Shown here: positions 9,906 through 61,944 of the stretch, in pieces
Numbering within the stretch: position 1 is the stretch's first letter
Layout: each line of letters starts with the position of its first letter
DNA from: a virus
Virus record (IMG/VR): IMGVR_UViG_3300032223_001420
Location: 1-64,000 of that record
Length of the DNA stretch: 64,000 nucleotides
Strand: one strand, 5' to 3'
The notes under the pieces: generated by a model
What the model saw: only the letters and a program-made list of their open reading frames with translations
Told to the model about the DNA's origin: nothing
The model's database searches: none
Translations under genes and position numbers: made by a program

Positions 9906-10613
9906 ATGCCATTAGTAAAAGTATCTTCGGGAAACATACAAGACGGAACAATTATTGCCGATGATTTGGCAAACCTAGCGGTCAACGGAGCTAAACTAGG
10001 AATCTATTCTGTTAGTGGTAACAATCTCGGAATTCAGTCAGTCAGCGGTAACAACATCGGTCTAGGCGCTATCAGTGCTAACCACTTTGGCGGTGGCGGT
10101 GTTACTTCTTCTGTTCTATCGCCAAATCTTTCAATCTCTACTGTTAGAGTAGCTGAGACAATTAATATTGTCAGCTATTCGGTTCAAGGTAATTATAATG
10201 TTCATATAGGAAATAGCACTGTATATCATTTCCTTGCAAACTCTTCAGGGAACGTAACTTTTAATTTAGTTGCTAATAGCGGACCCGCTACAGGAACAAC
10301 TGGTCGTGCAAACGATTTAATTAGTATTGGTCAATCTATTTCCGCAGCCATGTTATTTAAACAAGGCTCGACACGATATCGTGCAAACGTTTATATTGAT
10401 GGTGTGTTGCAAACTGCTTATTGGGCTGGAAATGCACAACCGCAATATACAACATCAGCAGGTGCACAGTCGATGACATATGATGCTTATAATTTCAGTA
10501 TCATTAAAATAGGAAACGATCAATATACAGTCTTCGCTTCTAACACACCGTATGGACAAGCGAATGGTCAAGGTATGGGTCCTATTAATGCTCCATTTGG
10601 ACCGGTTCAATAA
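9906..10613 (+). CDS. Putative virion fibre/adaptor protein
   Basis: 10-aa SVSGNN(L/I)G repeats followed by a beta-rich C-terminal domain; late promoter upstream. Confidence 0.65.
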   Translation: MPLVKVSSGNIQDGTIIADDLANLAVNGAKLGIYSVSGNNLGIQSVSGNNIGLGAISANHFGGGGVTSSVLSPNLSISTVRVAETINIVSYSVQGNYNVHIGNSTVYHFLANSSGNVTFNLVANSGPATGTTGRANDLISIGQSISAAMLFKQGSTRYRANVYIDGVLQTAYWAGNAQPQYTTSAGAQSMTYDAYNFSIIKIGNDQYTVFASNTPYGQANGQGMGPINAPFGPVQ

Positions 10614-11626
10614 TGCCAATTAGAAGTTCAATCGCCAACTCTATAAAATCCTTTGGTGCTGATCGCACCGGAGGTATTCCCAAAACTGCTCCTCCAGGAA
10701 TTGATTATATCGTACTTGCTGGAGGTGGTGGGGGTGGATATAGTGGAGGCGGAGGTGGCGGCGGCGGTGGTTTAGTAGTCGGTTCTGGTTATCCTGTTGC
10801 ATCAGGTATTACATTAACTTTTACTGTTGGTGGCGGTGGTGCGGGTGGCAATCCTGGTGGTACTTCACAAATAACTGGACCAAGCACACCAACCATTACT
10901 GCCAATGGCGGTGGCGATGGTGCTGATGGACCCGGTGGTGCTAACATTGGTGGTTCTGGTGGTTCTGGTGGAGGTGGTGCTAGAGATCAACCTGCGTCGA
11001 ATTCTGGATCAGGAGCAGGAACACCAGGACAAGGAAATAGAGGTGGTTATGGTGGTCAGCCTCCTCAAGGCGCTGCTGGTGGTGGAGGTGGTATTGGTGG
11101 AAATGGTCAAGATGGTCAATCCAATCCTGGTCAACCATATGATTTAGGAAGAAATGGTGCAGATGGTAGAGCCATACACGATTTTTGGGGTGGCTTTGGA
11201 TATGGCTATTTAAATCCCGCTATTGCTCCTGCTGCTGGACCTTGGACAAGTTTTAATATGGGTTGTGGTGGGGGAAATGGAATTCAACGAGATGGTAATC
11301 AACCGGCTGGGAATGGTGGTTCAGCATCTTCTATACCAGCGGCTTATCCACACACAGGCGGCGATGGTGGTGGTGGTCCAGGTTCTGCAAAACCAGCAAA
11401 TAGTGCTATTCAATACACCGGTTCGGGTGGGGGTGGTGCTCCTCCAAATCCTGGTGGTGGCGCAAGTCCTGCTGGCGGTGCAGGTTCTGGTGGTAGTATA
11501 ATTGTTCGATTTGATGAATTTTATAGTAATTCTGTAAGTATAACTGGTGGTCCATTATTATACACATATCAAAATGGATATCATCACTATCATTTTTTAG
11601 GCACCGGAACATTTGCATTTAATTAA
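10613..11626 (+). CDS. Glycine-rich putative adhesin (single Gly-rich domain)
   Basis: IDYIVLAGGGGG...GGSGGG...GQG..GG...GSGG.IIVRF, the same domain as the 53-62 kb proteins. Confidence 0.75.
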   Translation: MPIRSSIANSIKSFGADRTGGIPKTAPPGIDYIVLAGGGGGGYSGGGGGGGGGLVVGSGYPVASGITLTFTVGGGGAGGNPGGTSQITGPSTPTITANGGGDGADGPGGANIGGSGGSGGGGARDQPASNSGSGAGTPGQGNRGGYGGQPPQGAAGGGGGIGGNGQDGQSNPGQPYDLGRNGADGRAIHDFWGGFGYGYLNPAIAPAAGPWTSFNMGCGGGNGIQRDGNQPAGNGGSASSIPAAYPHTGGDGGGGPGSAKPANSAIQYTGSGGGGAPPNPGGGASPAGGAGSGGSIIVRFDEFYSNSVSITGGPLLYTYQNGYHHYHFLGTGTFAFN

Positions 11627-15913: not shown

Positions 15914-16483
15914 ATGCTATCATTAAAACAGTACATTGTTGAAGGTAATCCACTTCAGCAGAAAGTAAATAAACACATATCGCATGGTCGTAGTATCGGT
16001 GCAATTTCACCAGAAGGCGCTCATACAGACACACCAGAAAAACTGCATCACGCTCATGCTGAAATAAAGAAGGATTTGGAACATGCACGTAAATCAGGAC
16101 ATATTGGTGGTTGGTCTGGACCACACAGAGGTGAATATCAGTATAAGAGTGATGAGGGGCATGAAAAAGTAAGTCGTGAAGGTTCATACCTAGTTCATGC
16201 AAAAGATGAAGGTGAAGAAGGACATAAAAAAATGGTACATGCTTTAAGTCATATCGGTAATAAACATAAGCAAGAATCTATTTTATCTGTTCACCATAAA
16301 ACTCAAGAATCTAATTGGCATCACCTCAACAATTCACCGAAAAAAGGTGAAGTTGAACATAAAGGAAAATTACATTATAATGTTAAAGTAAATCCCGATG
16401 CAGAAACAGAAGAAGAAAGACAAAAAGGAAGAGGCAGAACTGGAATGAAAAAGTCTGGGCATTCCTTTACTTCCCACGATTAA
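15914..16483 (+). CDS. His-rich protein, possibly an internal head protein
   Basis: N-terminal MLSLKQYIVE resembles T4-like capsid-targeting/prohead-protease leaders; GATAAATA late-like promoter and GGAGG SD upstream. Confidence 0.6.
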   Translation: MLSLKQYIVEGNPLQQKVNKHISHGRSIGAISPEGAHTDTPEKLHHAHAEIKKDLEHARKSGHIGGWSGPHRGEYQYKSDEGHEKVSREGSYLVHAKDEGEEGHKKMVHALSHIGNKHKQESILSVHHKTQESNWHHLNNSPKKGEVEHKGKLHYNVKVNPDAETEEERQKGRGRTGMKKSGHSFTSHD

Positions 16484-16486
16484 AAA

Positions 16487-16810
16487 GTGAGTTATACTAT
16501 GGATACAATTGAAAATTTAATTGCTGAATTGAAGAGTACAAATGTTTCGTCTATATACGAATCTGATTTAAATAAGTATATTAGTCGTTATCAACAATAC
16601 TATCGTGAAAACGTAGCTATGAATCCTACAAAAGGATTTACCGCAGTTATTGGTTGGTATGATCAGAGGCGAAAAGAATTCTACGAAGAATTTAAAAAAA
16701 TAGGTATTCATGTTAAAGATAATCCAGTTCCACCACTACACGAATACGAACATCAGCTTAAACAAACTGGTATGAATCGATTGAGTGAATTGGAAAGAAA
16801 ATTAAAATGA
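16487..16810 (+). CDS. Hypothetical protein
   Basis: ORF track. Confidence 0.6.
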   Translation: MSYTMDTIENLIAELKSTNVSSIYESDLNKYISRYQQYYRENVAMNPTKGFTAVIGWYDQRRKEFYEEFKKIGIHVKDNPVPPLHEYEHQLKQTGMNRLSELERKLK

Positions 16811-16932
16811 GTGATGATAAAAAAGAACCTAAAACACCACTCGATCATTTCGAACGCTGGTTTGATATAGCACTTCGATTTGGTTGGTGTTTGTTCATTT
16901 ATGTGGTTGTCACTGGCAATTACATAAGATAG
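16807..16932 (+). CDS. Small membrane protein (41 aa, not in the ORF track)
   Basis: MSDDKKEPKTPLDHFERWFDIALRFGWCLFIYVVVTGNYIR; ATGA overlap with the previous stop. Confidence 0.55.
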   Translation: MSDDKKEPKTPLDHFERWFDIALRFGWCLFIYVVVTGNYIR

Positions 16933-16934
16933 AA

Positions 16935-17200
16935 TTGTTGTAATCCCTTCAAAGCGAAGGCATGTTGGACGAGGGTTCGATTCCCTCCATCTCCACCAAA
17001 AGCATATTGTGTAGTATGTTTTTGATGGGGATGACCAGGTTTCGACAGCGTGAGATAGTGGAGACGGCAACACGGTAGGCGATGACCGTAAATCAAGCAA
17101 AACTACAAATGCAAATGACGCATTTTATGGTGAGGATCGCCTAGCAGCGTAACTCACTTGGGGTTTAGGGAGTGTCCTTATTAACCAATCACTCCCACCA
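16935..17200 (+). ncRNA. ssrA: Circularly permuted (two-piece) tmRNA
   Basis: The acceptor piece GGACGAGGGTTCGATTCCCTCCATCTCCACCA (ends 16998) precedes the 5' piece GGGGATGACCAGGTTTCGAC (starts 17027); G3-U70 pair; tag ANDAFYGEDRLAA* at 17111-17152; outer boundaries approximate. Confidence 0.92.
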
Positions 17201-17213
17201 AATTTTATACATT

Positions 17214-17774
17214 ATGAAAATCTATAAATCAAATTACCGTAATCATTGGATTTCTCCTTACACTATTTTGGAGAAAGTTTTCTTTTGGCGTGAGATTGAT
17301 TATAATGAACCGATTATAGAGAAGTGGTCTAATCGTCTAAATCCAATCTGTGTAGCATGGCATGATTTTCTTGACTTTGTGCATCCACGAATCAGTTATG
17401 TGAAGATTGATCGGTATGATACATGGTCAATGGATGACACATTAGCAGATATCATTCTACCTATGTTAAAGCAGTTGAAGGAAACAAAACACGGTTCACC
17501 ATTCGTAGAAATGGAAGATGTGCCGGAACACCTTCGTGGTACAACTACCGAAGATTGGGAACCTCAATTTACCTTTGATTTTTATGAAGAAGATAAAGTA
17601 AGAGAAGGTATAAATGATGTTCATGCTCGATGGGATTGGGTAATGAATGAAATGATTTATGCATTTGAAAGGAAAGCAAACGATACTGATTGGTCAGCAA
17701 CTTGGGAAGAAACTGAACGTATGCAGAATGGATTCCGCTTGTTTGGCAAGTATTACCAAGGTCTCTGGGATTAA
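17214..17774 (+). CDS. Conserved phage hypothetical protein
   Basis: YDTWSMD.TLA.II.PML.QL...HG.P...GF.LFGKYY..LWD pattern. Confidence 0.75.
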   Translation: MKIYKSNYRNHWISPYTILEKVFFWREIDYNEPIIEKWSNRLNPICVAWHDFLDFVHPRISYVKIDRYDTWSMDDTLADIILPMLKQLKETKHGSPFVEMEDVPEHLRGTTTEDWEPQFTFDFYEEDKVREGINDVHARWDWVMNEMIYAFERKANDTDWSATWEETERMQNGFRLFGKYYQGLWD

Positions 17775-37029: not shown

Positions 37030-40000
37030 TGTCAGCAAATACCGATCTAAAAACTTCCGTTCTTGTTAGCCAAGAAGTCCCTGAATTTATTCGGGATGAG
37101 TATCCCACGTTTATTGCTTTCTTAGAAGCGTATTATCAATTCTTAGAAGAAAAACAAGGAACCGAGAATAATGATTTAATTACTCAGTCTAAAAAATTAA
37201 GAACGATTCGTGATGTTGATGAGTCAATAGATGAGTTTGAAACAAATTTTTATAATACTTACGCTACACTTTTACCTTTAGAAGTTCAGTCTGATAAAGC
37301 ACTTCTGTTTAAACAATTAGTACCTTTGTATAAAACAAAGGGTAGCGATGCATCATTTAAACTGTTGTTTAGATTAGTATTCGGCGAAGATATCGATGTT
37401 ATTCTTCCTAAAAATAATGTTCTAAAGTCTTCATCGAGTAAATGGCAGATTGATAATAAACTTCGTGTCAACTCACAGATATCATCACGTTATGTAGCTG
37501 ATGGCTCAACCAAAACTTTTGTTCTTGCACAGATTTCTGGTAAAGAAGATATTAAAGTTTATTTGGGCGACACTTTACAAACTACAGGCTATAGTGTTCG
37601 CAAAGAATATCGTAAATTAATTTTTGACGTTGCACCAGCAAATAATACAGTCGTTACTGTTACCTACACATCTTTTAATACCGATCTGTTAAAGAACCGA
37701 CAGGTTACTGGATTAACATCGGGTGCTACCGCAATCATCGAGTCAGCAACTCGAAGAATTATTACAGACTCATTGAATGTTGGTTTGCCAATTGAATTGT
37801 TAATTGATTCCGCAAATTTAACAGGTACGTTTTTAAATGGTGAGAATGTATCTATACCGATTGTTGATGTAAATGGAATATTGATTGACATTCGTGCTTC
37901 AACATTCTCTGTTGTTAAAGCAATCAATTTAACCAGTTTGGGTGCAAATTATAATGTTGGTGACCCAGTTTATGTTACTGGTGGTAATGCAACATCGAAT
38001 GCTATTGGTACAATCGAATCAATTTATCAAGGTATCGTTCAACAAATTTTAGTATCACATGGCGGTGCTATTTTTGGTCAAGATTCTCCAATTACCGTTC
38101 TTGGCAACACAAGTGCATATGGTTTGGAAGTGGTTGTCGATCAAATTGATTTGAGTGGAACGAATTCTGCGAATAGTCTTGTAGTATCCGATACACTGGT
38201 TGGACCGTATCAAAATGTTTACATTAACAATGCAAACTATGCTTGTACAACCGGCATTTCGACTACTGGTATTTTAAGTCCAAATTTAACAACTAGAATC
38301 GCTGATGTTTTAACTTATACATCAATACAAGCTGGACCGATTGCAAACGTCAAAGTTTTGCAGACATCAATGCCTTTAACTGTCAATCCAGTTTTTGATT
38401 CGTTTGGTGTTGCGTATGGCACAGATGCATCTATAATTACTAGCGTTACAGCAAACGCCGGTTCTGTAGGTGTAAACAGTTATGTTATTTTTAGTGGAGG
38501 CGCAACTTCTAACAGCGCAGCGAATGCAAGAATATATGTCAATTCCGCTGGTTATGTTGTCAACGTAAATCTTAATTATGGTGGTTTTTATGTTGGAAAC
38601 GTTTCTACTGCAACTGCTAATCAAGGTAACATAGCACTTTCTGTTTCATCAGTTAGACTTTCGCAAAGAACTCCAAAAAGTTTAAGATCGATTGGAAGAT
38701 TTAAAATTAATGATGGTGGTTCCAATTATAGACCATTTGATGAGATTGTATTTGGTGGAAACCCATTAGGAACTTATGGTAACTATGCCGAAGCTGTAGT
38801 CAGTGAAGTATACGCTGCAAATGGTGCGATTAGAAAAATTGCTCTTGCTAATACTTCGATTCCTGGAACGGTAACAATTTTTTCTGGTGGCACAATTATA
38901 AACGGTACCGGTACTAATTTTAACCGTGATTTAGTTGTTGGTGACTTGATTGATGTTAATGGTGAATCAAGAATCGTTGCTACAATTTCACCAGGTGGTC
39001 TTCAAGCATCTGTACAAAGCGGAACGCCTTTCACGAATTCTGCTACAGGTAAAAAAATTCGAGTTGCAAATCGTTATCCATTAGGTGGCTTTGGTTATAC
39101 ACAGAATAATTTTCCAACAGTAACAGTTTCATCTGCAACGGGTGCTGGCGCAAATATTGCAATCGATTCTCTTGTTTCAGATGGCGATAGATTCATAGCT
39201 ACTGGAACTGGAACGCAAGGTTCAATTCTTTCTCTTAAAATTCTTGATCCGGGTGCAGGATATCAATATATTCCTTCGGTTGAAATTAGAAGCGCAACCG
39301 GTACTGGTGCAGTAGCAAATGCAACTATTGAGCGTTCTTACGTAACAGCACCTGGTCGTTGGACAACTTCAGATTCTATTCTTTCTACTACTGAACGTAA
39401 ACTTGCTGGTCGAGATTATTACGTTGATTACTCATATATCATCTCTTCTAGAGTTGAATTTTACAAATATAAAACATTATTAAAAGAATTATTGCATCCA
39501 GTTGGTTTTGTAAAATATGCTGAATACAAAGCTGAGTCGGTTATTGACCTGTATGACATTGGTGTAGTTGTACCGAATCCTTTTGGTGATGAGCAATTCT
39601 TAACGATTTCTGGTCGTGTAAATGTTGGTAATGGAAGTATCGTTGTCAGTGGTTCACACGATCAAACAAAGTTTAATATCGCAAATAGTAGAGCATCAGG
39701 TATTTTATCATTAGGTATAAATGATGCATCTTATATTTCAGTTAATGGTGAAATTCGCAGAGTCAATTCTATTATTAGTAATACTACTCTTTTGACTTCC
39801 GCCAAAATAAATGATATCAAAATTGCAAACGTTGGATCAGGCTATTCTAATGGATATGTTGTATTCACTGGCGGTGGTGGTCGATTAACTGGAACAACTT
39901 TAACTTATCCAGGCTCAGGATATTCTAACGGCACATTGTTATTTACTGGTGCCGATGAAGCTATTCCTGCTTATGCTACTGTTGAAGTTTATGCATCTAA

Positions 40001-53138: not shown

Positions 53139-55733
53139 ATGAGTCTTCGTAGACTTGCTGTAAATCCTCTTTCGTCACAGAGACTTACTGCTGCTAGAAT
53201 TATCAATAACCTTTTATCTTTACAAAGATTATCGGTACCGGTACCATCGAGCATTGGTAGCATTTTTCAAGTAATTCAAATTTTTAATGGGACATCTACA
53301 TGGTCTGTTCCATCTGGAACAACTTTAGTTGACTATCTAATTGTTGCAGGTGGTGGTTCTGGTGGTTATCAAACTGGCGGTGGAGGTGGTGCTGGTGGAT
53401 TATTAACCGGAACAAATTTATCTGTAACTCCTGGACAAACTTTTACACTTGCGGTAGGTGGCGGTGGTGCCGAAACAACATCACCTTTAAGTAGAGGATC
53501 AAACGGATCGAATTCTGGAATTTATAGTTCATCACCATCACCATTTCCTGCTTTATGGTCTATTGGTGGTGGCGGTGGTGGTTATATAGCTAATGCTTAT
53601 GGTGGAGGTTCCGGTGGTGGCGGCGGTGGAGACGGTCCAGGACCAACAAATGCAGGAGCACCGGGTACACCGGGACAAGGTTTTGGTGGAGGTGCTGGAG
53701 CATTTTTATCAGCATCTCCAGGCATTCCAGGTAATCCAGGTTATCGTTTTGCTGGCGGTGGCGGTGGTGGCGCAGGTACTGCGGGTTTTGATGGATCAGT
53801 ACCTGCTCCAGCACCATTAGTAGTTACTGGGGGTAATGGTGGTATAGGAATTTTTTCAACCATCTCTGGTTCAAATACAGGTTATGCTGGTGGTGGCGGT
53901 GGAGCTGCTATGCTTACGTTACCGGGCAATCAACAAACAGCAGGATATGGAGCGATCACTACTGGTGGTGCTAACGGTTCCATTTATGGTGCAAATGCAA
54001 ATGCAGGAATTTCTGGAACAGGTGGCGGTGGAGGTGGTGCCTCAAATCCTGGTGCTGGCCCAGGATATGTTGGAGGTGGTAATAGCGGTGGATCGGGTGT
54101 CATCATTCTTCGTTATAGTGCATATCAAGCTGGCGCTTATATATTTTCGAATACGGGACAGCTTGTAATTCCTCAAGGTGTAACAGCAATCGATTATCTT
54201 GTTGTTGCTGGCGGTGGCGGTGGTGCATCTTCTGGAATTGGCGCTGGTGGAGGTGCTGGTGGATTATTAACTGGTTCTGGTTATCCAGTAATACCAGGAC
54301 AACTTTATACAATTCAAGTTGGTTCTGGAGGAAATGCTGGATATCCAATAGGTAGCCAAGGATCAAATTCTGGCATATGGAATACATCATCGGGAACCAA
54401 TATATGGACTAATGGTGGTGGTTATGGTGCAGCGGCAAATCCAAGTCCAGGAACTGGAAATGGTGGGGGATCAGGTGGTTCTGGTGGTGGTGCCGCTGGT
54501 GGTGCTGTACCTGTTGCTATTTATCCGGGCGGCGCAGGTACTCCGGGTCAGGGAAATAATGGTGGTAACGCAGGATTTCTTGCTGCTGGGGGCGGCGGCG
54601 GAGCAGGCAGTGTTGGTGTTGTTGGTTCTTCTGGCACAACTGGCAATGGAGGTCTTGGTATTTTCTCCAGTATAAGTGGAGCCAATACAGCATACGCTGG
54701 CGGTGGTGGCTCAATAGGCGGTCCAGGTCCATCTATCAGTTATGGTGGAGGAGGCAACTCTAGAGGACCTGGTTATTATGGTTCAACAAGTTCTTTAATA
54801 GCACCTTATGGTGCATTTATAGGTACGCCTTTTGGTGCGGGTAGTGGCAACACTGGTGAAAGTGGAGTTTCAGGAACGGGCAGTGGTGGTGGAGGTGCAA
54901 CTCCTCTGGCTGGTTCAGGTGGTTCGGGTATAGTAATCATTAAACCTTCTTCAATTCAAACTGGATATGCGACATGGACTTCTTCGAGCATATGGACACC
55001 ACCTGCCGGTGTTAGTTTGATTTCATATCTAATTGTTGCAGGTGGAGGTGGTGGGGGTCTAGCATCACCAAATGCTGGCGCTGGCGGCGGAGGTGGTGCT
55101 GGTGGCCTCAGAGCCGGATCAGGATTCCCTGTAACACCTACAGTGCCAATCACCGTAACAGTTGGTGCTGGCGGTGCTAGTCAAACAAACGGTTCAAATT
55201 CTGGAATTTATGGAACATCTCCATTTCCTGCTATTTGGTCTACTGGTGGTGGACGAGGTGGCAACGATGATGGTGCCACATTTGCTGGTGGTCCAGGTGG
55301 TTCTGGTGGTGGAGCAGCATGTTCTGGGTTTGGCACTCCAACAAGTAGAATTGGTGGGCAAGGTAATTTAGGAGCATATACTCCAGCCGAAGGAACAGGT
55401 GGTGGTTCTGGAACAAGTAATCCAGGTGCTGCTGGTGGTGGTGGAGGTGCTTCTGCGAACGGTATAAGTGGAACACCTTCTGCTGGCGGTAATGGGGGAG
55501 TTGGAATTTTCTCAACCATATCTGGCTCAAATACTGGATATTCTGGTGGAGGTGGTGGTGGTACAAATGCACCAATAACTATAGGCTATGGTGCATTTAC
55601 AAGTGGCGGTGCGAATGGAGTAACTTCGGGTACTGGTTCAAGTGCAGTATCTTATCAAGGCGGTGGTGGCGGTGGAGGTGCTACTGGTGGTGGTTCTGGT
55701 GGTTCCGGAGTTGTTGTTTTGAGATGGGTATAA
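53139..55733 (+). CDS. Glycine-rich putative adhesin with three tandem Gly-rich domains
   Basis: Three copies of W..P.G...(V/I)DYLIVAGGG...GGSG.VI. Confidence 0.8.
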   Translation: MSLRRLAVNPLSSQRLTAARIINNLLSLQRLSVPVPSSIGSIFQVIQIFNGTSTWSVPSGTTLVDYLIVAGGGSGGYQTGGGGGAGGLLTGTNLSVTPGQTFTLAVGGGGAETTSPLSRGSNGSNSGIYSSSPSPFPALWSIGGGGGGYIANAYGGGSGGGGGGDGPGPTNAGAPGTPGQGFGGGAGAFLSASPGIPGNPGYRFAGGGGGGAGTAGFDGSVPAPAPLVVTGGNGGIGIFSTISGSNTGYAGGGGGAAMLTLPGNQQTAGYGAITTGGANGSIYGANANAGISGTGGGGGGASNPGAGPGYVGGGNSGGSGVIILRYSAYQAGAYIFSNTGQLVIPQGVTAIDYLVVAGGGGGASSGIGAGGGAGGLLTGSGYPVIPGQLYTIQVGSGGNAGYPIGSQGSNSGIWNTSSGTNIWTNGGGYGAAANPSPGTGNGGGSGGSGGGAAGGAVPVAIYPGGAGTPGQGNNGGNAGFLAAGGGGGAGSVGVVGSSGTTGNGGLGIFSSISGANTAYAGGGGSIGGPGPSISYGGGGNSRGPGYYGSTSSLIAPYGAFIGTPFGAGSGNTGESGVSGTGSGGGGATPLAGSGGSGIVIIKPSSIQTGYATWTSSSIWTPPAGVSLISYLIVAGGGGGGLASPNAGAGGGGGAGGLRAGSGFPVTPTVPITVTVGAGGASQTNGSNSGIYGTSPFPAIWSTGGGRGGNDDGATFAGGPGGSGGGAACSGFGTPTSRIGGQGNLGAYTPAEGTGGGSGTSNPGAAGGGGGASANGISGTPSAGGNGGVGIFSTISGSNTGYSGGGGGGTNAPITIGYGAFTSGGANGVTSGTGSSAVSYQGGGGGGGATGGGSGGSGVVVLRWV

Positions 55734-55736
55734 ATA
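55729..55736 (+). promoter_or_regulatory. T4-type late promoter
   Basis: Exact TATAAATA upstream of ORF 55771. Confidence 0.7.
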
Positions 55737-55770
55737 ATGATTAGCAATTTTACTTTATAGGAGTGATTGA

Positions 55771-56184
55771 ATGAATAACAAAGAAATTGAATATGCACAT
55801 TACTTAATTGGTAACGATAATAAATTAGTTTGTGGTATCGACACAGCAATTAAAGCACTACGCCCAACCGCACGTTATGATATGGCAGCATCAGGTGGGC
55901 ATTTTACTTTTACTCGTTGGGAAGATGAAGCTGATACAAAAGCACCAACTAAAGCGGAGATTATGGCAGAGTTGGAATATCAGAATAAGTTTATTGAACA
56001 CAATCAGTATTTTTTAGATCGTGCTGCAAACTATCCCGATATTACTGTTCTAGTAAATTTACTTTGGGAAGCAATGGATAATAGTGAGATACCAGGCAAA
56101 GGAACAAAGTTTTATAATGCAATCAAAGAAGTGAATGAGAAGTTTCCTAAACCAGAAGGTGATGCTCCAGTAAGACCAACATAA
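55771..56184 (+). CDS. Putative tail-fibre assembly chaperone (XkdW-like)
   Basis: AI.ALRP.A.....W......PT..EI...Y...R...YP.....LW......FY.AI..V..KFPKP. Confidence 0.6.
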   Translation: MNNKEIEYAHYLIGNDNKLVCGIDTAIKALRPTARYDMAASGGHFTFTRWEDEADTKAPTKAEIMAELEYQNKFIEHNQYFLDRAANYPDITVLVNLLWEAMDNSEIPGKGTKFYNAIKEVNEKFPKPEGDAPVRPT

Positions 56185-56196
56185 CGAAAGAGTTAA

Positions 56197-56589
56197 ATGA
56201 GTTACATAGGAAACCAAGTCAAGTCAGTACCATACATCACTGATGTTTTTAGTGGAGCAGGTGGCACATCGTTTGGACCACTTACGATTGTACCAGCCAG
56301 CCCCGCTTCAGTTATGATATTTGTTGGTGGTGTATATCAACGACCAACATTAGATTATACACTGAGTGTTGACTATGTAAACTTTGTATCCGCACCAACA
56401 TCAGGAACAAACAATATTGTCATTCATCATATTGGATATGGTTACATGTCAACCCAAGTTCCTGCTGATGGAACAGTAACCGCACCAAAATTAGGTGTAC
56501 AGTCGATCTATTCAAACAATTTTTCAACACAAGCAAATTCAACAATCACAGGAAAATCAGTAGCGATGGCTATTGTATTCGGAGGATAA
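56197..56589 (+). CDS. Virion adaptor protein (MSYIGN type), paralog 2
   Basis: Paralog of 52315; VGGVYQ.P..DY, F.SAP.SGT.NI, C-terminal AMAIVFGG. Confidence 0.7.
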   Translation: MSYIGNQVKSVPYITDVFSGAGGTSFGPLTIVPASPASVMIFVGGVYQRPTLDYTLSVDYVNFVSAPTSGTNNIVIHHIGYGYMSTQVPADGTVTAPKLGVQSIYSNNFSTQANSTITGKSVAMAIVFGG

Positions 56590-56594
56590 AATAA

Positions 56595-56990
56595 ATGGCA
56601 GCACCAAATATCGTCGCAGTTTCAACCATTAATGGTAAATCAAATGTTGCCAACGTAACCACAGTTACTTCGAACGTTGTTGTGAATGCAATAGGATCAG
56701 GTAAAGTATTTAAGATTAATACGATCTATATTTCTAATGTTGATGGTACAAATTCTGGTAATATTACTGTTGGTCTTTATAAAGCAGGTAACACTGGTTC
56801 ACAAAGGTCTGCTGACGGCACACTTTCAAATACAGTATTTTCACTTGCTAACGTAGTTACTGTTCCTGCTAAATCAACACTTGATCTTCTAAGTAAAACT
56901 CTTTATTTGGAAGAAGGAGATGTAATTACTGTCAAAGGCGATTCAAATAATCGTATGCATATGATTACATCATTCGAGGAACTAAGCTAA
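56595..56990 (+). CDS. Small beta-sandwich virion connector, paralog 3
   Basis: MAAPNIV.V..I.G...KIN.I..SNVDG...VPA.STL......YLEEGD......SFEE. Confidence 0.7.
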   Translation: MAAPNIVAVSTINGKSNVANVTTVTSNVVVNAIGSGKVFKINTIYISNVDGTNSGNITVGLYKAGNTGSQRSADGTLSNTVFSLANVVTVPAKSTLDLLSKTLYLEEGDVITVKGDSNNRMHMITSFEELS

Positions 56991-56991
56991 G

Positions 56992-59508
56992 ATGCCACTT
57001 GGTTTAAATGGTGGTATAATTGGTGTATTAAATTCATCCACAAAAGCTGGCGGGGCATCTGGTCTTTGGTCGCACAGTGAAGTTGGTATCAATAGATTAC
57101 AAGGATTGTGGCCAGACCCAACCAGTGTAGTTCGCACATTTACATCATCGACTACGTGGACCGCTCCAGGTGCAGTAACGATTGATTATTTCGTTGTTGC
57201 TGGTGGTGGCGGTGGAGCATCTGGCGCAGCAGGACCAGGTAATGCTGGCGGTGGTGGAGGTGGCGGTGCTGGTGGTTATCTCTCGGGCACTGGGTTACCA
57301 ATATCATCCGGACAAACATATACGATTGCAGTTGGTTCGGGTGGTGCAGGAGGAACAGCACCACCCGCCAATTTTAGTAACTATGGAAGTAACGGAACAA
57401 ACTCTGGTATATTTGTTACATCATCTGGTGCAAATTTAATTCCTTCTTGGGCATATGGTGGTGGCGGTGGTGCTGGTGGAGATGCAACACCCACAAGCAT
57501 TGGTTATTCTGGTGGTTCAGGTGGTGGTGGAAATTCTAACGGTCCAGCCGCAGGTAAAGGAATTTATCCTGGCTCGGCTTTCATAGATGCTCCTAGACAA
57601 GGTTATGATGGAGGTACTGGTAGTACCGCAGGAGGCGCAGGTGGTGGTGCGGGTGCAGCCGCACTTTCTCCAGGTGGCGGAAATTTTACAACTATTCCTG
57701 GTGGTTTGGGAGTATATAACTCACTCGTTGGTTCAAACACGTATTATGCTGTTGGTGGTGACGGTGGTCGAAATGATTTCCCTTCACCCACTTTAACAGG
57801 TGCGACCGCTGCCAGTTCGACTGGTTCTGGTGGAGGTGGAGGAGGACAAGGAGGTGGCGGTGCATATTTAGGTGGTGCTGGTGGTTCGGGTATTATCGTA
57901 CTCAAATATTCTTTGAACCCCACACTAAATTCCACTCCAATGGTTTTTTCAAATACAAGTCAACTTGTTATTCCAGATGGCGTAACATCTATAGATTATT
58001 TAATTGTTGCTGGTGGTGGAGGCGCTGATTCTGGTGGCGGTGGTGGCGGTGGTTTAATAACAGGAACAGGTTTTCCTGTAACCCCAAATCAATCATATAC
58101 TGTCGTTGTAGGTGCCGGAGGAGCAGGCGGTCGTAATGGTGGTGGATCAGGACCTTTATCCACTGCTGGTGGTAATTCAAGTTTTTCATCACTGTGGACA
58201 CATGGTGGAGGTAGAGGAGGTTCTAGTAATTCACCAAACTATCTAGGCGGTGTTGGTGGTTCTGGTGGTGGTTCGGGTCAAGCACTTTCTCCACCATCTG
58301 GTGGTGGAACATTTAATGGTGGAGCAGCGAATTCTGTAGTAGTCCAAGGCTATGCTGGTGGTCAAGGTGGAACTGATAACGGTTCATATCGTTATTCTGG
58401 TGGAGGTGGCGGGGCGGGTGCTGTTGGTGGCAATGGCACATCAACTGGTGGTGGAGTTGGTGGAAATGGTGGAGCAGGATTATTATCATCTTTATCTGGT
58501 ACACCAACGTATTATGCTGGCGGAGGTGGTGGAAAAGGTGATTCTCCAACTGGTCAATCAACAGGCGGCACAGGTGGCGGTGGTGCTGGTGCATTAGGAC
58601 CTACTGGAAATGGAAGTAGTGGTACTGCTTCAACCGGTGGCGGTGCGGGCGGTCAAAATTCAGGCAGTGCATATGGTGGTAATGGTGGTTCTGGTGTTGT
58701 TGTTATTAGATTTTCTGGCACGAAGCCTAATGTTTTTTCTGTATTTACTAGCACATCTTCGTGGACTGTACCAACAGGAATTACAGGAATAAGTTATATG
58801 ATTGTTGGTGGTGGCGGTGGTGGAGGTGCAGGATTTTCTGGAGGTGGTGGCGGTGGCGGTGGATTCCGTACAGGAACATTTTTAGTAACTCCAGGTTCAA
58901 CATATACAGTTACAGTTGGCGCTGGTGGTGCAATTAATTCAGGTAATGGTTCCAATTCAGGAATCAGTGGTACTACAGGGTCCGTTTGGGCTGCTGGTGG
59001 GGGCGGTGGAGGTGGAACCGGTTCTGGTGCTCCTTCATTAGGATATGGTCAATCTGGTGGCTCTGGTGGCGGTAACGGAAGTAAAAATCCAGATGGTACT
59101 ACAGTCGGGCAAGGAAACTCACCATATACAACACCGGTACAAGGATACAATGGTAACACAGGTGGAACTCCAGGTGGTGTTGATTGGGGTGGTGGCGGTG
59201 GTGGTGCAGGTGGAGCCGGTGGCGGTGGCGGATACAACGGTGTCGGTCAAGGCGGTTTAAGTGTATTTTCTTCATTCTCTGGATCAAATACTTCATACGG
59301 TGGCGGTGGTGGTGCAGGAACAGCAAACGTTCCAGGTGGTTATGGAAATGGTGGCGGTGGTTCACAAGCTGCACCAATAGGAGATTTATCTGGTGGTAGT
59401 ACAGGTTCTCCAGGAATAACAAATTCTGGTGGTGGCGGTGGCGGGCAACCTCAAGCACCCAATATTGGTGCTGGTGGTTCTGGAATCGTTATCATCAAAG
59501 GATTATAA
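56992..59508 (+). CDS. Glycine-rich putative adhesin with three tandem Gly-rich domains
   Basis: N-terminal NGG.IG..N....SG.W...WP, then three Gly-rich domains. Confidence 0.8.
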   Translation: MPLGLNGGIIGVLNSSTKAGGASGLWSHSEVGINRLQGLWPDPTSVVRTFTSSTTWTAPGAVTIDYFVVAGGGGGASGAAGPGNAGGGGGGGAGGYLSGTGLPISSGQTYTIAVGSGGAGGTAPPANFSNYGSNGTNSGIFVTSSGANLIPSWAYGGGGGAGGDATPTSIGYSGGSGGGGNSNGPAAGKGIYPGSAFIDAPRQGYDGGTGSTAGGAGGGAGAAALSPGGGNFTTIPGGLGVYNSLVGSNTYYAVGGDGGRNDFPSPTLTGATAASSTGSGGGGGGQGGGGAYLGGAGGSGIIVLKYSLNPTLNSTPMVFSNTSQLVIPDGVTSIDYLIVAGGGGADSGGGGGGGLITGTGFPVTPNQSYTVVVGAGGAGGRNGGGSGPLSTAGGNSSFSSLWTHGGGRGGSSNSPNYLGGVGGSGGGSGQALSPPSGGGTFNGGAANSVVVQGYAGGQGGTDNGSYRYSGGGGGAGAVGGNGTSTGGGVGGNGGAGLLSSLSGTPTYYAGGGGGKGDSPTGQSTGGTGGGGAGALGPTGNGSSGTASTGGGAGGQNSGSAYGGNGGSGVVVIRFSGTKPNVFSVFTSTSSWTVPTGITGISYMIVGGGGGGGAGFSGGGGGGGGFRTGTFLVTPGSTYTVTVGAGGAINSGNGSNSGISGTTGSVWAAGGGGGGGTGSGAPSLGYGQSGGSGGGNGSKNPDGTTVGQGNSPYTTPVQGYNGNTGGTPGGVDWGGGGGGAGGAGGGGGYNGVGQGGLSVFSSFSGSNTSYGGGGGAGTANVPGGYGNGGGGSQAAPIGDLSGGSTGSPGITNSGGGGGGQPQAPNIGAGGSGIVIIKGL

Positions 59509-61944
59509 ATGGCTAAAAGATTCAATGGTGGTTTAATTGGCACACCAAACTTAACAACAATCACTAGAGCTACTGGTATTTGGTCACTTGGTGATGTACG
59601 AAATAGTATTTTAACGAATTCATGGCCACAAGCAACTCCAGTCGTATATACATTTTTATCATCAACTACATTTCAGATACCTGCGGATGTAGGTGCTATA
59701 GACTATTTTATAGTTGCAGGTGGTGGTGCGGGTGGTGGGCAAGGTAATGGTATTGGTGGTGGCGGTGGTGGAGGTGGAGGTTATCTAACAGGTTTAGCTG
59801 TACCAGTTATTTCTGGTGCAACATATACTATCGCTGTCGGTTCTGGTGGTACAGGAACAAGCGCCCAAACACAAGGTGCCAATGGAGGTAACTCTGGCAT
59901 ATTTAATACAAGTTCTGGTACAACAGTAACACCGTGGGCAATTGGCGGTGGTGGAGGCGGTGGTGGTAATGGTGCCGCATCAAGTAATGGTTATGCTGGT
60001 GGTTCTGGTGGTGCTGCAAGTAATGGTAATGCTGGCGCAGGAACACCAGGTCAAGGTAATAACGGAGGTTCAGGAAATAATAGTGGAGCACCAAACTATC
60101 GACTATCTGGTGGTGGCGGTGCAGGAGCTATTGGGCAAGATGGTAATTTTGGTGGTGCTGGCGGCGCAGGAATTTATTCATCGTTCTCTGGTGCTAACGT
60201 AGCATACGCTGGAGGTGGTGGCGGTGGAGGTAATGGGGGTTCTGCTGCTGCTATCGCAATTGGTGGCGGTGGTATAGGTGGCGGTGGAAGTGCAAATACA
60301 AACACCGGTGGTGGTGGCGGTGGCGCACAAAATGGCGGTACCAGTGGCAATGGTGGTTCGGGTATCGTTATGATTAGATGCTATCAATATACCACTGATG
60401 CTCTTATATTTAATAACACAACTCAATTTACAATACCTTCTGGCATAACAGCAATCGATTATCTTGTTGTTGCTGGCGGTGGCGGTGGTGGTGCACAATA
60501 TGGAGGCGGTGGTGGCGGTGGAGGTGGTTATGTAGTTGGAAGCGCATTTCCGGTTTCTGGTACATTAAACATTGTTGTTGGTGCTGGCGGCACTGGAGGT
60601 GGAGCTGAACCAAATAGCGCACAAGGAACAAGAGGAGGTAACTCTTCAATAGCTGCAATTTCTTCGAATACCGCAATACTTGCTGTTGGTGGTGGATATG
60701 GGGGTCAAGGTGGCGCATATATTGCAGCCGGTGGCTCAGGTGGTTCTGGTGGAGGTGGAGGTGGTTTTGCTGGTGGTACAACAGCGATAGGTGGTATTGG
60801 ATTTTTAGGTCAAGGAAATAATGGTGGTAGTGGTTATGGAACTGCAAATTATGGCTCCGGTGGAGGTGGGGGTGCCGGTCAAGTAGGAACATCTGCAGTA
60901 ACAAATGCCCCAACATATAGTTCAGGAAAAGGTGGCGATGGACTATCATCATCATTATCTGGAACACCCACATATTATTCTGGAGGTGGTGGCGGTGGAG
61001 GTAATGGTGGTTCGGCAGCAGGTGGCTTAGGTGGTGGTGGAACTGGAGGTTCTTCTAGTAATCCCACAACACCCGCTCCTGGTTATTTTGGAACAACTGG
61101 TACACCAAATACTGGTGGCGGTGCTGGTGGTTCTGGAGGCAATTTGGGTGGTGTGAATGGTGGTTCGGGAATCGTAATCATTCGACCTTCATATTATCAG
61201 TCACAATATAAAACTGCTGTATTTACTACAACCACATCATGGGTTGCAACAACTTCATTAGTTGATTATCTTGTCGTTGCAGGCGGTGGTGGTGGCAATG
61301 AAGGCGGCGGCGGTGCAGGAGGTTTCTTAACTGGCACTGGAATGTCATTAACGCCAGGTCAATCGTACTCAGTTATAGTTGGTGCTGGTGGTAGTGGTGG
61401 ATCAGGAAGTTCGGTACTAGCAACAAACGGAGCAAACTCTTCATTTAATGGTATCAATTCTATTGGTGGTGGTTATGGTGGCGGTGGTACCAATGGTGGA
61501 GCTAATAATGGTGGTTCAGGTGGCGGTGCATCAGCATCAACACAAGGTGGTCCATATGCTGGAGGAATTGGAATACTAGGTCAAGGTCTTGGTGGTGGCG
61601 GTGGTATAAGTGTTTCTGGTGTAGGTAACTTTACTGGTGGTGGAGGTGGTGCTGGTGCTAACGGAGAACCAGGTATTGGTAGCACTAGATCAGGTAATGG
61701 TGGTATAGGTTTATCATCTTCTATATCTGGTATGCCAACTTATTACGCCGGCGGTGGTGGTGCTTGGGGTTCTCCTGGTACATTAACAACATCAGGAGGT
61801 ATAGGTGGTGGCGGCAGCGGCACTACCGTAAGAGGAGATTATACTAACGCAGGAACGCCAGGAACTGGTAGTGGTGGTGGCGGTAATCCAAATCCTGTTG
61901 GCGGCAATGGTGGTTCGGGTATAGTAATTCTCAGATGGACATAA
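59509..61944 (+). CDS. Glycine-rich putative adhesin with three tandem Gly-rich domains
   Basis: N-terminal NGG.IG..N....G.W...WP, then three Gly-rich domains. Confidence 0.8.
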   Translation: MAKRFNGGLIGTPNLTTITRATGIWSLGDVRNSILTNSWPQATPVVYTFLSSTTFQIPADVGAIDYFIVAGGGAGGGQGNGIGGGGGGGGGYLTGLAVPVISGATYTIAVGSGGTGTSAQTQGANGGNSGIFNTSSGTTVTPWAIGGGGGGGGNGAASSNGYAGGSGGAASNGNAGAGTPGQGNNGGSGNNSGAPNYRLSGGGGAGAIGQDGNFGGAGGAGIYSSFSGANVAYAGGGGGGGNGGSAAAIAIGGGGIGGGGSANTNTGGGGGGAQNGGTSGNGGSGIVMIRCYQYTTDALIFNNTTQFTIPSGITAIDYLVVAGGGGGGAQYGGGGGGGGGYVVGSAFPVSGTLNIVVGAGGTGGGAEPNSAQGTRGGNSSIAAISSNTAILAVGGGYGGQGGAYIAAGGSGGSGGGGGGFAGGTTAIGGIGFLGQGNNGGSGYGTANYGSGGGGGAGQVGTSAVTNAPTYSSGKGGDGLSSSLSGTPTYYSGGGGGGGNGGSAAGGLGGGGTGGSSSNPTTPAPGYFGTTGTPNTGGGAGGSGGNLGGVNGGSGIVIIRPSYYQSQYKTAVFTTTTSWVATTSLVDYLVVAGGGGGNEGGGGAGGFLTGTGMSLTPGQSYSVIVGAGGSGGSGSSVLATNGANSSFNGINSIGGGYGGGGTNGGANNGGSGGGASASTQGGPYAGGIGILGQGLGGGGGISVSGVGNFTGGGGGAGANGEPGIGSTRSGNGGIGLSSSISGMPTYYAGGGGAWGSPGTLTTSGGIGGGGSGTTVRGDYTNAGTPGTGSGGGGNPNPVGGNGGSGIVILRWT

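Follow-up and report, generated by a model that had tools for sequence, protein, structure and literature searches.

A circularly permuted beta-type tmRNA gene with its own tag in the record of a probable T4-like phage

Transfer-messenger RNA (tmRNA, encoded by ssrA) frees stalled ribosomes and tags unfinished proteins for destruction, and the locus described here raises the question of whether a phage supplies a ribosome-rescue RNA of its own. The locus lies at positions 16936 to about 17200 of a 64,000-nucleotide (nt) stretch of viral DNA from the IMG/VR record IMGVR_UViG_3300032223_001420; this whole stretch is referred to as the window. At this site the original prediction, made from the letters of the DNA, had claimed a phage-encoded, circularly permuted, two-piece tmRNA with its own tag. 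The findings presented below make it very probable that a lytic T4-like phage carries, at this locus, a functional beta-type ssrA gene in circularly permuted form.

Detection and anatomy of the gene

When the window was searched with ARAGORN, a permuted tmRNA (tmRNA*) was called at 16906-17243, with the coding part at 17111-17152 and with the same tag that had been predicted, ANDAFYGEDRLAA. In the Rfam searches, the RF01850 (beta_tmRNA) model matched positions 16889-17207 with 154.9 bits (E 1e-47, model positions 1-331 of 331) and the RF04321 (tmRNA_permuted) model matched positions 16936-17152 with 154 bits (E 1.2e-30, model positions 1-213 of 213), compared to gathering cut-offs of 84 and 47 bits, respectively. 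The claim of a permuted tmRNA with its own tag was thus borne out by the ARAGORN call and by two covariance models above their cut-offs. At the same locus the alpha_tmRNA model reached 61.8 bits and the cyano_tmRNA model 43.6 bits, the latter below its cut-off of 70 bits; in control searches the alpha_tmRNA model gave a match in Caulobacter only. Subtyping of permuted tmRNAs by the three older Rfam models is recommended in PMC11915505, and by this rule the gene is of the beta type, because the beta score of 154.9 bits stands against 61.8 bits for alpha and 43.6 bits for cyano. The limits of the gene were taken as 16936 to approximately 17200; both the ARAGORN span and that of RF01850 reach at their ends into neighbouring genes, and the 5' flank of RF01850 aligns to the window at low confidence.

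The predicted folds were compared with those of shuffled sequences. The whole 265-nt gene folded at -85.4 kcal/mol compared to -70.8 +/- 4.82 kcal/mol for the shuffles (z -3.03; 1 of 200 shuffles as good), and the acceptor stem together with the intervening hairpin (16988-17033) folded at -22.5 kcal/mol compared to -7.77 +/- 2.58 kcal/mol (z -5.71; 0 of 200). These findings show that both the whole gene and the acceptor stem with the intervening hairpin fold far above chance.

The positions of the individual elements are collected in Table 1, and on direct reading of the sequence all coordinates that had been given for them were correct. The acceptor half does lie upstream of the 5' half, the encoded CCA ending at 16998 and G1 standing at 17027, in agreement with the tmRNA* call. 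The hairpin-forming intervening segment of 28 nt, which had been described between the two halves, was found in the place given for it, and its fold with the acceptor stem is the one that reached a z of -5.71. Similarly, the G3:U70 pair, which is an alanine identity element, is present in an acceptor stem of seven base pairs (bp), and all seven pairs of helix 2 (CATGTTG with CAGCGTG) form, two of them as G-U. The GCA at 17111, which had been named as the resume codon, opens the same reading frame in the ARAGORN call. The loop of the T-arm is of the GGUUCGAUUCC type, a UGAU leader stands immediately 5' of G1 (17027), and an A-rich spacer separates GCA 17111 from the hairpin at the position of pseudoknot 1 (PK1). 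The 3' hairpin at 17168-17196 probably marks the 3' end region of the coding piece. Taken together, this reading of the sequence and of its predicted structure shows that the marks of a two-piece tmRNA are present in the gene, with a hairpin at the position of PK1.

Conservation across a viral family

Relatives of the gene were collected with two patterns. A search for the permuted arrangement gave 10 viral contigs, and 10 of 10 were called permuted by ARAGORN; by Rfam, five were above the beta cut-off, four above the alpha cut-off and one above the cut-off of RF04321 only. A two-motif pattern for the beta type gave at least 120 viral stretches. Eighty loci taken from these were analysed with ARAGORN, which called a permuted tmRNA in 75; the other five were loci cut to 412-459 bases.

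When an alignment of 81 sequences was analysed with RNAalifold with no structure supplied, 43 pairs were predicted, and 33 of these had compensatory changes. The prediction included the acceptor stem and T-arm, helix 2 and the outer helix, the PK1-position hairpin and, within the intervening segment, a stem of 12 bp. At the G3:U70 position all 81 of the 81 sequences had a U-G pair. Covariation was found in three of the seven acceptor pairs, in five of the five T-stem pairs and in helix 2, and in the helices that join the two pieces it is exemplified by columns 58:326 (CG in 38 sequences, UA in 21 and AU in 15). The stem of the intervening segment (columns 95-107/283-295) and that of the PK1-position hairpin (columns 351:364, GC in 60 sequences and AU in 20) covaried as well. 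By a direct count of stems, a stem of at least 5 bp surrounds the 3' loop motif in 60 of the 81 sequences, with 30 distinct stem sequences.

The tags of the family are diverse. Among the window and 91 loci, ARAGORN made 87 calls with 66 distinct tag strings, and the tag ANDAFYGEDRLAA recurs in five other viral contigs (L005, L008, L011, L118 and L119). It belongs to a subfamily of 11 sequences with tags of the ANDAF[YF]GExRLAA type, in which 9 of the 13 codons are variable: seven of these vary only synonymously, one encodes either Y or F, and position 9 is free, while codon 10 (CGC) is invariant. Because seven of the nine variable codons change only synonymously, the tag frame evolves like a translated sequence, which supports the claim that GCA 17111 opens a tag. 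Many tags elsewhere in the family are long (24-31 amino acids) and fall into recurring types, ANA[ND]TFDFSAMSFTGNTV...ALAA and A[KN]AST GEVTV...FAV among them (examples in L059, L113, L128, L085, L095, L099 and L102). The comparisons of helices and of tag codons show that selection maintains both throughout a large family of viral contigs.

The segment that encodes the end of the tag, ATCGCCTA, is a perfect 8-bp complement of TAGGCGAT in the loop of the PK1-position hairpin. No shuffle of the tag end reached 8 bp (0 of 2000), and the minimum-energy fold of the whole gene uses this pairing. Of 12 RLAA-type sequences, six show the full 8 bp between loop and tag end and five more show 6-7 bp. The complement may be a long-range pairing specific to this subfamily. 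As a feature of the whole family the pairing was rejected: only 16 of 82 beta-type members, mostly those with RLAA tags, have the complement CGCCT. The idea that helix 5 is replaced in genes with RLAA tags was also dropped, the median of a crude measure being 4 bp in both groups. The invariance of the PK1-position loop in the 80 loci was imposed by the search pattern itself; independently of the two-motif pattern, the loop was common to six of six beta-type sequences, namely the window and matches of the permuted-arrangement search.

The intervening segment ranges from 26 to 200 nt in the family, with a median of 74 nt, and the 28 nt of the window are close to the minimum. An open reading frame (ORF) of 15-62 codons starting with ATG lies within this segment in 17 of the 81 family members; the short segment of the window has none. 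Twelve of these 17 frames stop at the TGA that belongs to the conserved TGAT leader before G1. In one group the frame encodes a conserved hydrophobic peptide of 23-24 amino acids (MNDDLT..-type), which shows conservative changes between contigs. Frames of 24 or 23 amino acids occur in L085, L092, L095, L097, L115, L074 and L125, one of 62 amino acids occurs in L134, and those of 50 amino acids in L073 and L116 are clearly related to each other. These frames look like micro-genes nested within a stable-RNA gene.

Table 1. Elements of the tmRNA gene and the flanking reading frames in the window
Feature	Position	Strand	Basis or description
Acceptor piece, about 63 nt	16936..16998	+	Rfam alignments, RNAalifold covariation, direct reading
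Outer helix, strand UGUUGU with partner GCAACA	16936-16941 with 17067-17072	+	Rfam, RNAalifold
Helix 2, CATGTTG with CAGCGTG	16961-16967 with 17046-17052	+	7 of 7 pairs, 2 of them G-U
GAC between helix-2 strand and T-arm in acceptor piece		+	direct reading
T-arm: GAGGG, loop TTCGATT, CCCTC	16971-16987: 16971-16975, 16976-16982, 16983-16987	+	
Acceptor 3' strand CATCTCC; discriminator A; encoded CCA	16988-16994; 16995; 16996-16998	+	
Intervening segment, 28 nt	16999..17026	+	stem of about 12 bp stacked on the acceptor stem
Coding piece, 5' part	17027..17072	+	sequence, Rfam, RNAalifold
Acceptor 5' strand GGGGATG	17027-17033, G3 at 17029	+	7 pairs with CATCTCC, including G3:U70
D-loop analogue ACCAGGTTTCGA	17034-17045	+	
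PK1-position hairpin, stem CGGU/ACCG, loop AGGCGAUG	17073..17088	+	Rfam structure, stem covariation
Tag reading frame, resume codon GCA 17111, ANDAFYGEDRLAA, stop TAA 17150-17152	17111..17152	+	ARAGORN
Tag-end segment ATCGCCTA	17136..17143	+	perfect 8-bp complement of TAGGCGAT, 17076-17083, in the PK1-position loop
3' hairpin: GGGAGTG, 15-nt loop TCCTTATTAACCAAT, CACTCCC	17168..17196	+	RF01850 structure
Micro-ORF, 41 amino acids, hydrophobic C-terminal half	16807..16932	+	end lies 3 nt upstream of the tmRNA gene, outside the RNA
Downstream ORF, 186 amino acids from ATG 17214	17214..17774	+	starts 17 nt after the 3' hairpin

The phage and the known relatives of its tmRNA

The window is made up of bases 1-64000 of a linear IMG/VR record of 86,490 bases with an estimated completeness of 48%. 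Matches to PHROG families included a gp32-type single-stranded DNA-binding protein, a helicase loader, a baseplate wedge and hub, a tail tube, PhoH and exonucleases, and this gene content identifies the record as that of a T4-like myophage. No close cultured relative was found; a megablast search with 20 kb gave only two 77-nt matches. The nearest isolates by the baseplate wedge were Pelagibacter phage HTVC008M and Methylophilales phage Melnitz, at 39% identity, while the gp32 protein was 55-59% identical to those of cyanomyophages and 53-55% identical to those of HTVC008M and Mosig. Among the records of five relatives that were searched, four carried gp32 at 82-85% identity and, as in the window, a few kb from the tmRNA gene; one of these four is a record of 169,777 bases with terminal repeats that is estimated to be complete. 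The gp32 search of the fifth record (85% complete) gave no match.

Permuted tmRNA genes of phages have been published before. Buchholz et al. 2022 (PMC9004378) described a two-piece ssrA in Melnitz, a myophage of OM43, and counted tmRNAs in 402 of 18,146 phage genomes. Among the 133 unique forms, 53 were two-piece, and 50 of these 53 came from marine or aquatic phages. In the same paper, 17 of 47 Melnitz-like contigs are found to carry a permuted tmRNA, and its Table S1 lists XacN1, DLP_6 and Mendera as "Permuted". A tmRNA database of 2025 holds 79 unique bacteriophage sequences (PMC11915505), and in a survey of 2014 the phage tmRNAs known were one-piece only (PMC4131195). The gene in the window is therefore one more case of an already published and common phage tmRNA type.

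Like the window, Melnitz and HTVC008M have a permuted ssrA among phage genes of a T4-like myophage of the marine and freshwater clade, and no phage SmpB was found. In contrast to the beta-type gene of the window (154.9 bits for beta and 61.8 bits for alpha), their genes are of the alpha type, with 106.7 and 83.8 bits for alpha, 25 and 56 bits for beta, and 113.4 and 90.6 bits for RF04321, respectively. No DNA similarity of the window tmRNA to either was detected by blastn. The 3' domain of the Melnitz ssrA is reported to contain a glutamine (glnA-type) riboswitch (PMC9004378); the window does not match a Melnitz-type ssrA with a riboswitch, its alpha score being weaker and no riboswitch family, glutamine included, having been found at the Rfam cut-off anywhere in the 64,000 nt.

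The tmRNA genes of DLP_6 (KU682439) and XacN1 (AP018399) are of the beta type, as in the window, with 103.7 and 107.8 bits for beta, 54.2 and 39 bits for alpha, and 136.8 and 123.2 bits for RF04321, respectively. By blastn, their acceptor and T-arm region was 76-80% identical to the window with only 19-22% of the query aligned. DLP_6 (Stenotrophomonas) and XacN1 (Xanthomonas) differ from the window in phage type and host, and XacN1 has two copies. In the GenBank records these permuted genes, at 102838-103059 of KU682439.2 and at 37231-37530 and 356026-356325 of AP018399.1, carry no annotation. Beta-type permuted genes are thus already present among catalogued cultured phages. Moreover, since the hosts of XacN1 and DLP_6 are not betaproteobacteria and both phages carry the beta type, this subtype does not name the host of the window phage.

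Other phage tmRNAs differ in gene order. According to PMC4131195, the tmRNAs of the Bxz1 group of mycobacteriophages and of Bacillus phage G, and the RNA of DS6A, resemble the window in being phage-borne ssrA without a phage SmpB; in contrast, those of the Bxz1 group and phage G have an unpermuted order, and DS6A has only a tRNA-like domain (TLD) with no tag frame.

With the cellular two-piece tmRNA of betaproteobacteria (RF01850), the window shares a full-length match, helix 2, the PK1-position hairpin and the 3' hairpin with its loop motif. The 5' flank of the RF01850 consensus looks promoter-like, whereas in the window it aligns, at low confidence, with the end of a protein-coding micro-ORF. 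The tmRNA of Caulobacter, for which PMC9004378 and PMC11915505 cite Keiler, Shapiro and Williams (2000), shares the gene architecture of the window and is likewise presumed to be processed into an acceptor piece and a coding piece, but it is alpha-type and cellular, with an SmpB gene of its own in the genome. To our knowledge, the Caulobacter kind is the only two-piece tmRNA shown to be functional.

Cellular genomes were also searched for the family. The motif combination was found at two loci in 185,579 species genomes. One of these (L014) gave no tmRNA by ARAGORN or Rfam and is a chance match. The other (L015) is a beta-type permuted tmRNA with the tag ANDSTYALAA on a 46-kb contig (C228) in a metagenome-assembled genome (G001) labelled Alteromonadales. 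This contig is a T4-like phage contig with a gp32 homologue at 61% identity, and the assembled genome has its own one-piece tmRNA (192 bits) on another contig; because of these two features the locus is a binned phage contig and not a cellular gene. The binning may reflect contamination or a link between virus and host. Among a class-level sample of 151 genomes around it, only this assembled genome passed the RF01850 cut-off, two unpublished genomes in the sample giving matches below threshold, and a phylum-level pattern search, in which only 15-45 nt were allowed between the halves, gave 0 of 401. Apart from the binned phage contig, no cellular genome with the loop motif of the beta-type family was found among the 185,579 species genomes.

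Contigs of public RNA libraries were aligned to the gene with no differences at 16929-16994 (X15), at 16876-16944 and 17091-17154 (X16) and at 17058-17101 (X17). These contigs indicate presence in RNA libraries and are not proof of transcription. Their depth (X15-X18) covered 16796-17700, with peaks at 16972-17015 and 17060-17103 and none on 16400-16795. Many continued into unlike sequence (shares of 0.30-0.65) and for that reason stem from conserved parts of relatives. The holes in coverage and the contig ends near 16994-16996 are no evidence of processing, because assembled contigs cannot show RNA ends. The runs that held 0.36-0.48 of the sampled words carried freshwater, aquatic or drinking-water labels in most cases and a marine label in one, which gives no more than a hint of an aquatic habitat.

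The frames next to the gene are on the same strand. The ATG of the 41-amino-acid micro-ORF overlaps the stop of the preceding 107-amino-acid ORF (ATGA), an arrangement of translational coupling, and its region is conserved in close relatives (A1); it matched no Pfam or PHROG family. The 186-amino-acid downstream ORF matched no Pfam family, and in its longer frame (17172-17774) it matched phrog_11543, of unknown function. On the minus strand, two ORFs (16753-17100 and 16920-17096) overlap the tmRNA gene; neither matched a Pfam or PHROG family. Two genes upstream, a 189-amino-acid ORF (15914-16483, plus strand) gave a weak match to the S-adenosylmethionine (SAM) lyase family PF23780, below threshold (27.2 bits compared to a cut-off of 28; E 4e-6), and possibly encodes an anti-restriction SAM lyase. 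Elsewhere in the window, ARAGORN found plus-strand tRNA genes for Lys(ttt), Gln(ttg), Trp(cca), Ser(gct) and Gly(tcc) in a cluster at 1-685 and 2108-2182, and Rfam a further one at 1-67 that is cut by the window start. Four large plus-strand ORFs, within 53139-61944 and at 10613-11626, all matched phrog_2295, of unknown function; the part of the window with these ORFs has a G+C content of 0.44-0.46 compared to about 0.37.

Proposed function and competing explanations

The best reading of these findings is that the phage would supply its own ribosome-rescue RNA. The gene is probably transcribed together with its neighbours, because only 3 nt separate it from the micro-ORF and 17 nt from the following gene, both of which share its strand, and it has no convincing promoter. 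Permuted tmRNAs are processed into two pieces by tRNA enzymes (PMC11915505 and PMC9004378). In the window, host RNase P would cut 5' of G17027, 3' trimming would stop at the encoded CCA at 16998, and the 28-nt hairpin would be discarded from the precursor. The expected products are an acceptor piece of about 63 nt (16936-16998) and a coding piece of about 170 nt (17027 to about 17200), which would stay joined through the pairing of the acceptor stem, of helix 2 and of the outer helix. The acceptor piece would be charged by the host alanyl-tRNA synthetase (AlaRS) via G3:U70, and host SmpB and EF-Tu would deliver the RNA to ribosomes stalled on broken messages, which are expected to be plentiful during phage degradation of host RNA. 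Translation would then resume at GCA 17111 and add ANDAFYGEDRLAA. A C-terminal LAA is linked to degradation by ClpX, and this end of the tag would direct the product to host proteases. The phage would gain freed ribosomes and reusable amino acids.

Several observations weigh against this reading. When the 3' hairpin was folded alone, its z was -1.25 and insignificant, and RNAalifold returned no structure on the 3' tails of the family. For the hairpin at 17073-17088 to be a true pseudoknot a second stem would be needed, and none was found. The promoter-like site upstream of the gene (TTGTCA at 16907-16912, 17 nt, TAGAAT at 16930-16935) is at chance level, 10 such sites having been found compared to 8.1 +/- 3.2 in shuffles, and no terminator-like site was found on the plus strand. 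In favour of the reading, and of the use of host SmpB in particular, no SmpB gene was found in the record of the window (48% complete) or in the records of five relatives. Four of these five records are at least 90% complete, and one, which carries the same tag as the window, is 100% complete. Because no SmpB was found there, the RNA is taken to work with host SmpB, AlaRS and EF-Tu, which assumes that it is compatible with the host; as the record itself is only 48% complete, a phage SmpB cannot be strictly excluded. In addition, we infer processing, charging and tagging at this locus by analogy with established permuted tmRNAs.

The competing explanations differ in what they would have the RNA do. 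If it were a passenger or relic, that is, a recently captured host ssrA, an integration remnant, a chance tRNA-like stretch or the shadow of a coding sequence on the minus strand, then the role of ssrA as a common integration site, with fragments in prophages (PMC9004378), and the two minus-strand ORFs that overlap the gene would fit. This is scarcely credible, however, for a gene that matches RF01850 and RF04321 at every model position, is carried by a phage of a lytic T4-like type and belongs to a family with covarying helices on at least 120 viral contigs, while the scan of 185,579 genomes gave only the binned phage contig and one chance match. The minus-strand ORFs match no family, and the changes in length of the intervening segment (26-200 nt) are incompatible with coding across it. 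A decoy that sequesters SmpB or AlaRS, and thereby inhibits trans-translation in the host with no tagging, has a precedent in the role proposed for the TLD-only molecule of mycobacteriophage DS6A (PMC4131195 and PMC11915505) and agrees with the failure to find a phage SmpB. For such a decoy the tRNA-like domain alone would suffice, yet conservation extends to helix 2, the 3' hairpin and the region of the resume codon, and the complete tag frame is kept, with only synonymous change in seven of its nine variable codons; because the tag frame is kept, a decoy is very improbable.

It is also conceivable, although unlikely, that the RNA serves in takeover or counter-defence, the phage tmRNA supplanting that of the host in trans-translation. 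This could mean rescue after abortive-infection toxins of the host have cut mRNAs or tRNAs, or a re-routing of proteins by the phage's own tag with its RLAA end and variable ninth residue. The 66 distinct tags in 87 calls, several of them 24-31 amino acids long, the RLAA subfamily with its invariant codon 10 and free residue 9, and the beta-type permuted genes of XacN1 and DLP_6, isolates on Xanthomonadales, would agree with such a role, and selective tagging of host proteins is proposed as a possible role in PMC9004378. Nothing in the sequence, however, separates a takeover from plain ribosome rescue, and there is no linked defence or anti-defence gene, the neighbours being without an informative family except for the one sub-threshold SAM-lyase-like match upstream. 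A broader and speculative version, which we consider rather doubtful, is that the beta-type genes form a lineage propagated by phages that evolves and spreads independently of the ssrA type of the host, that the tags and the 8-bp pairing are adapted to infection, and that the RNA replaces the host tmRNA and redirects trans-translation. Ribosome rescue with a phage-encoded RNA and host factors remains the preferred reading.

What is particular to the gene in the window is modest: it is of the beta type, unlike the Melnitz and pelagimyophage examples, its intervening segment is short, and its RLAA tag has a complement in the PK1-position loop. The locus alone leaves current understanding unchanged. 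Its value lies in documenting well, down to the exact anatomy, one more case of an RNA gene often missed when viral contigs are annotated. The family to which it belongs, at least 120 viral contigs with dozens of tags, is a natural experiment on the purpose of phage tmRNAs, and if a lineage propagated by phages proved to be true, it would mean that the phage RNA replaces, and does not merely supplement, the tmRNA of the host.

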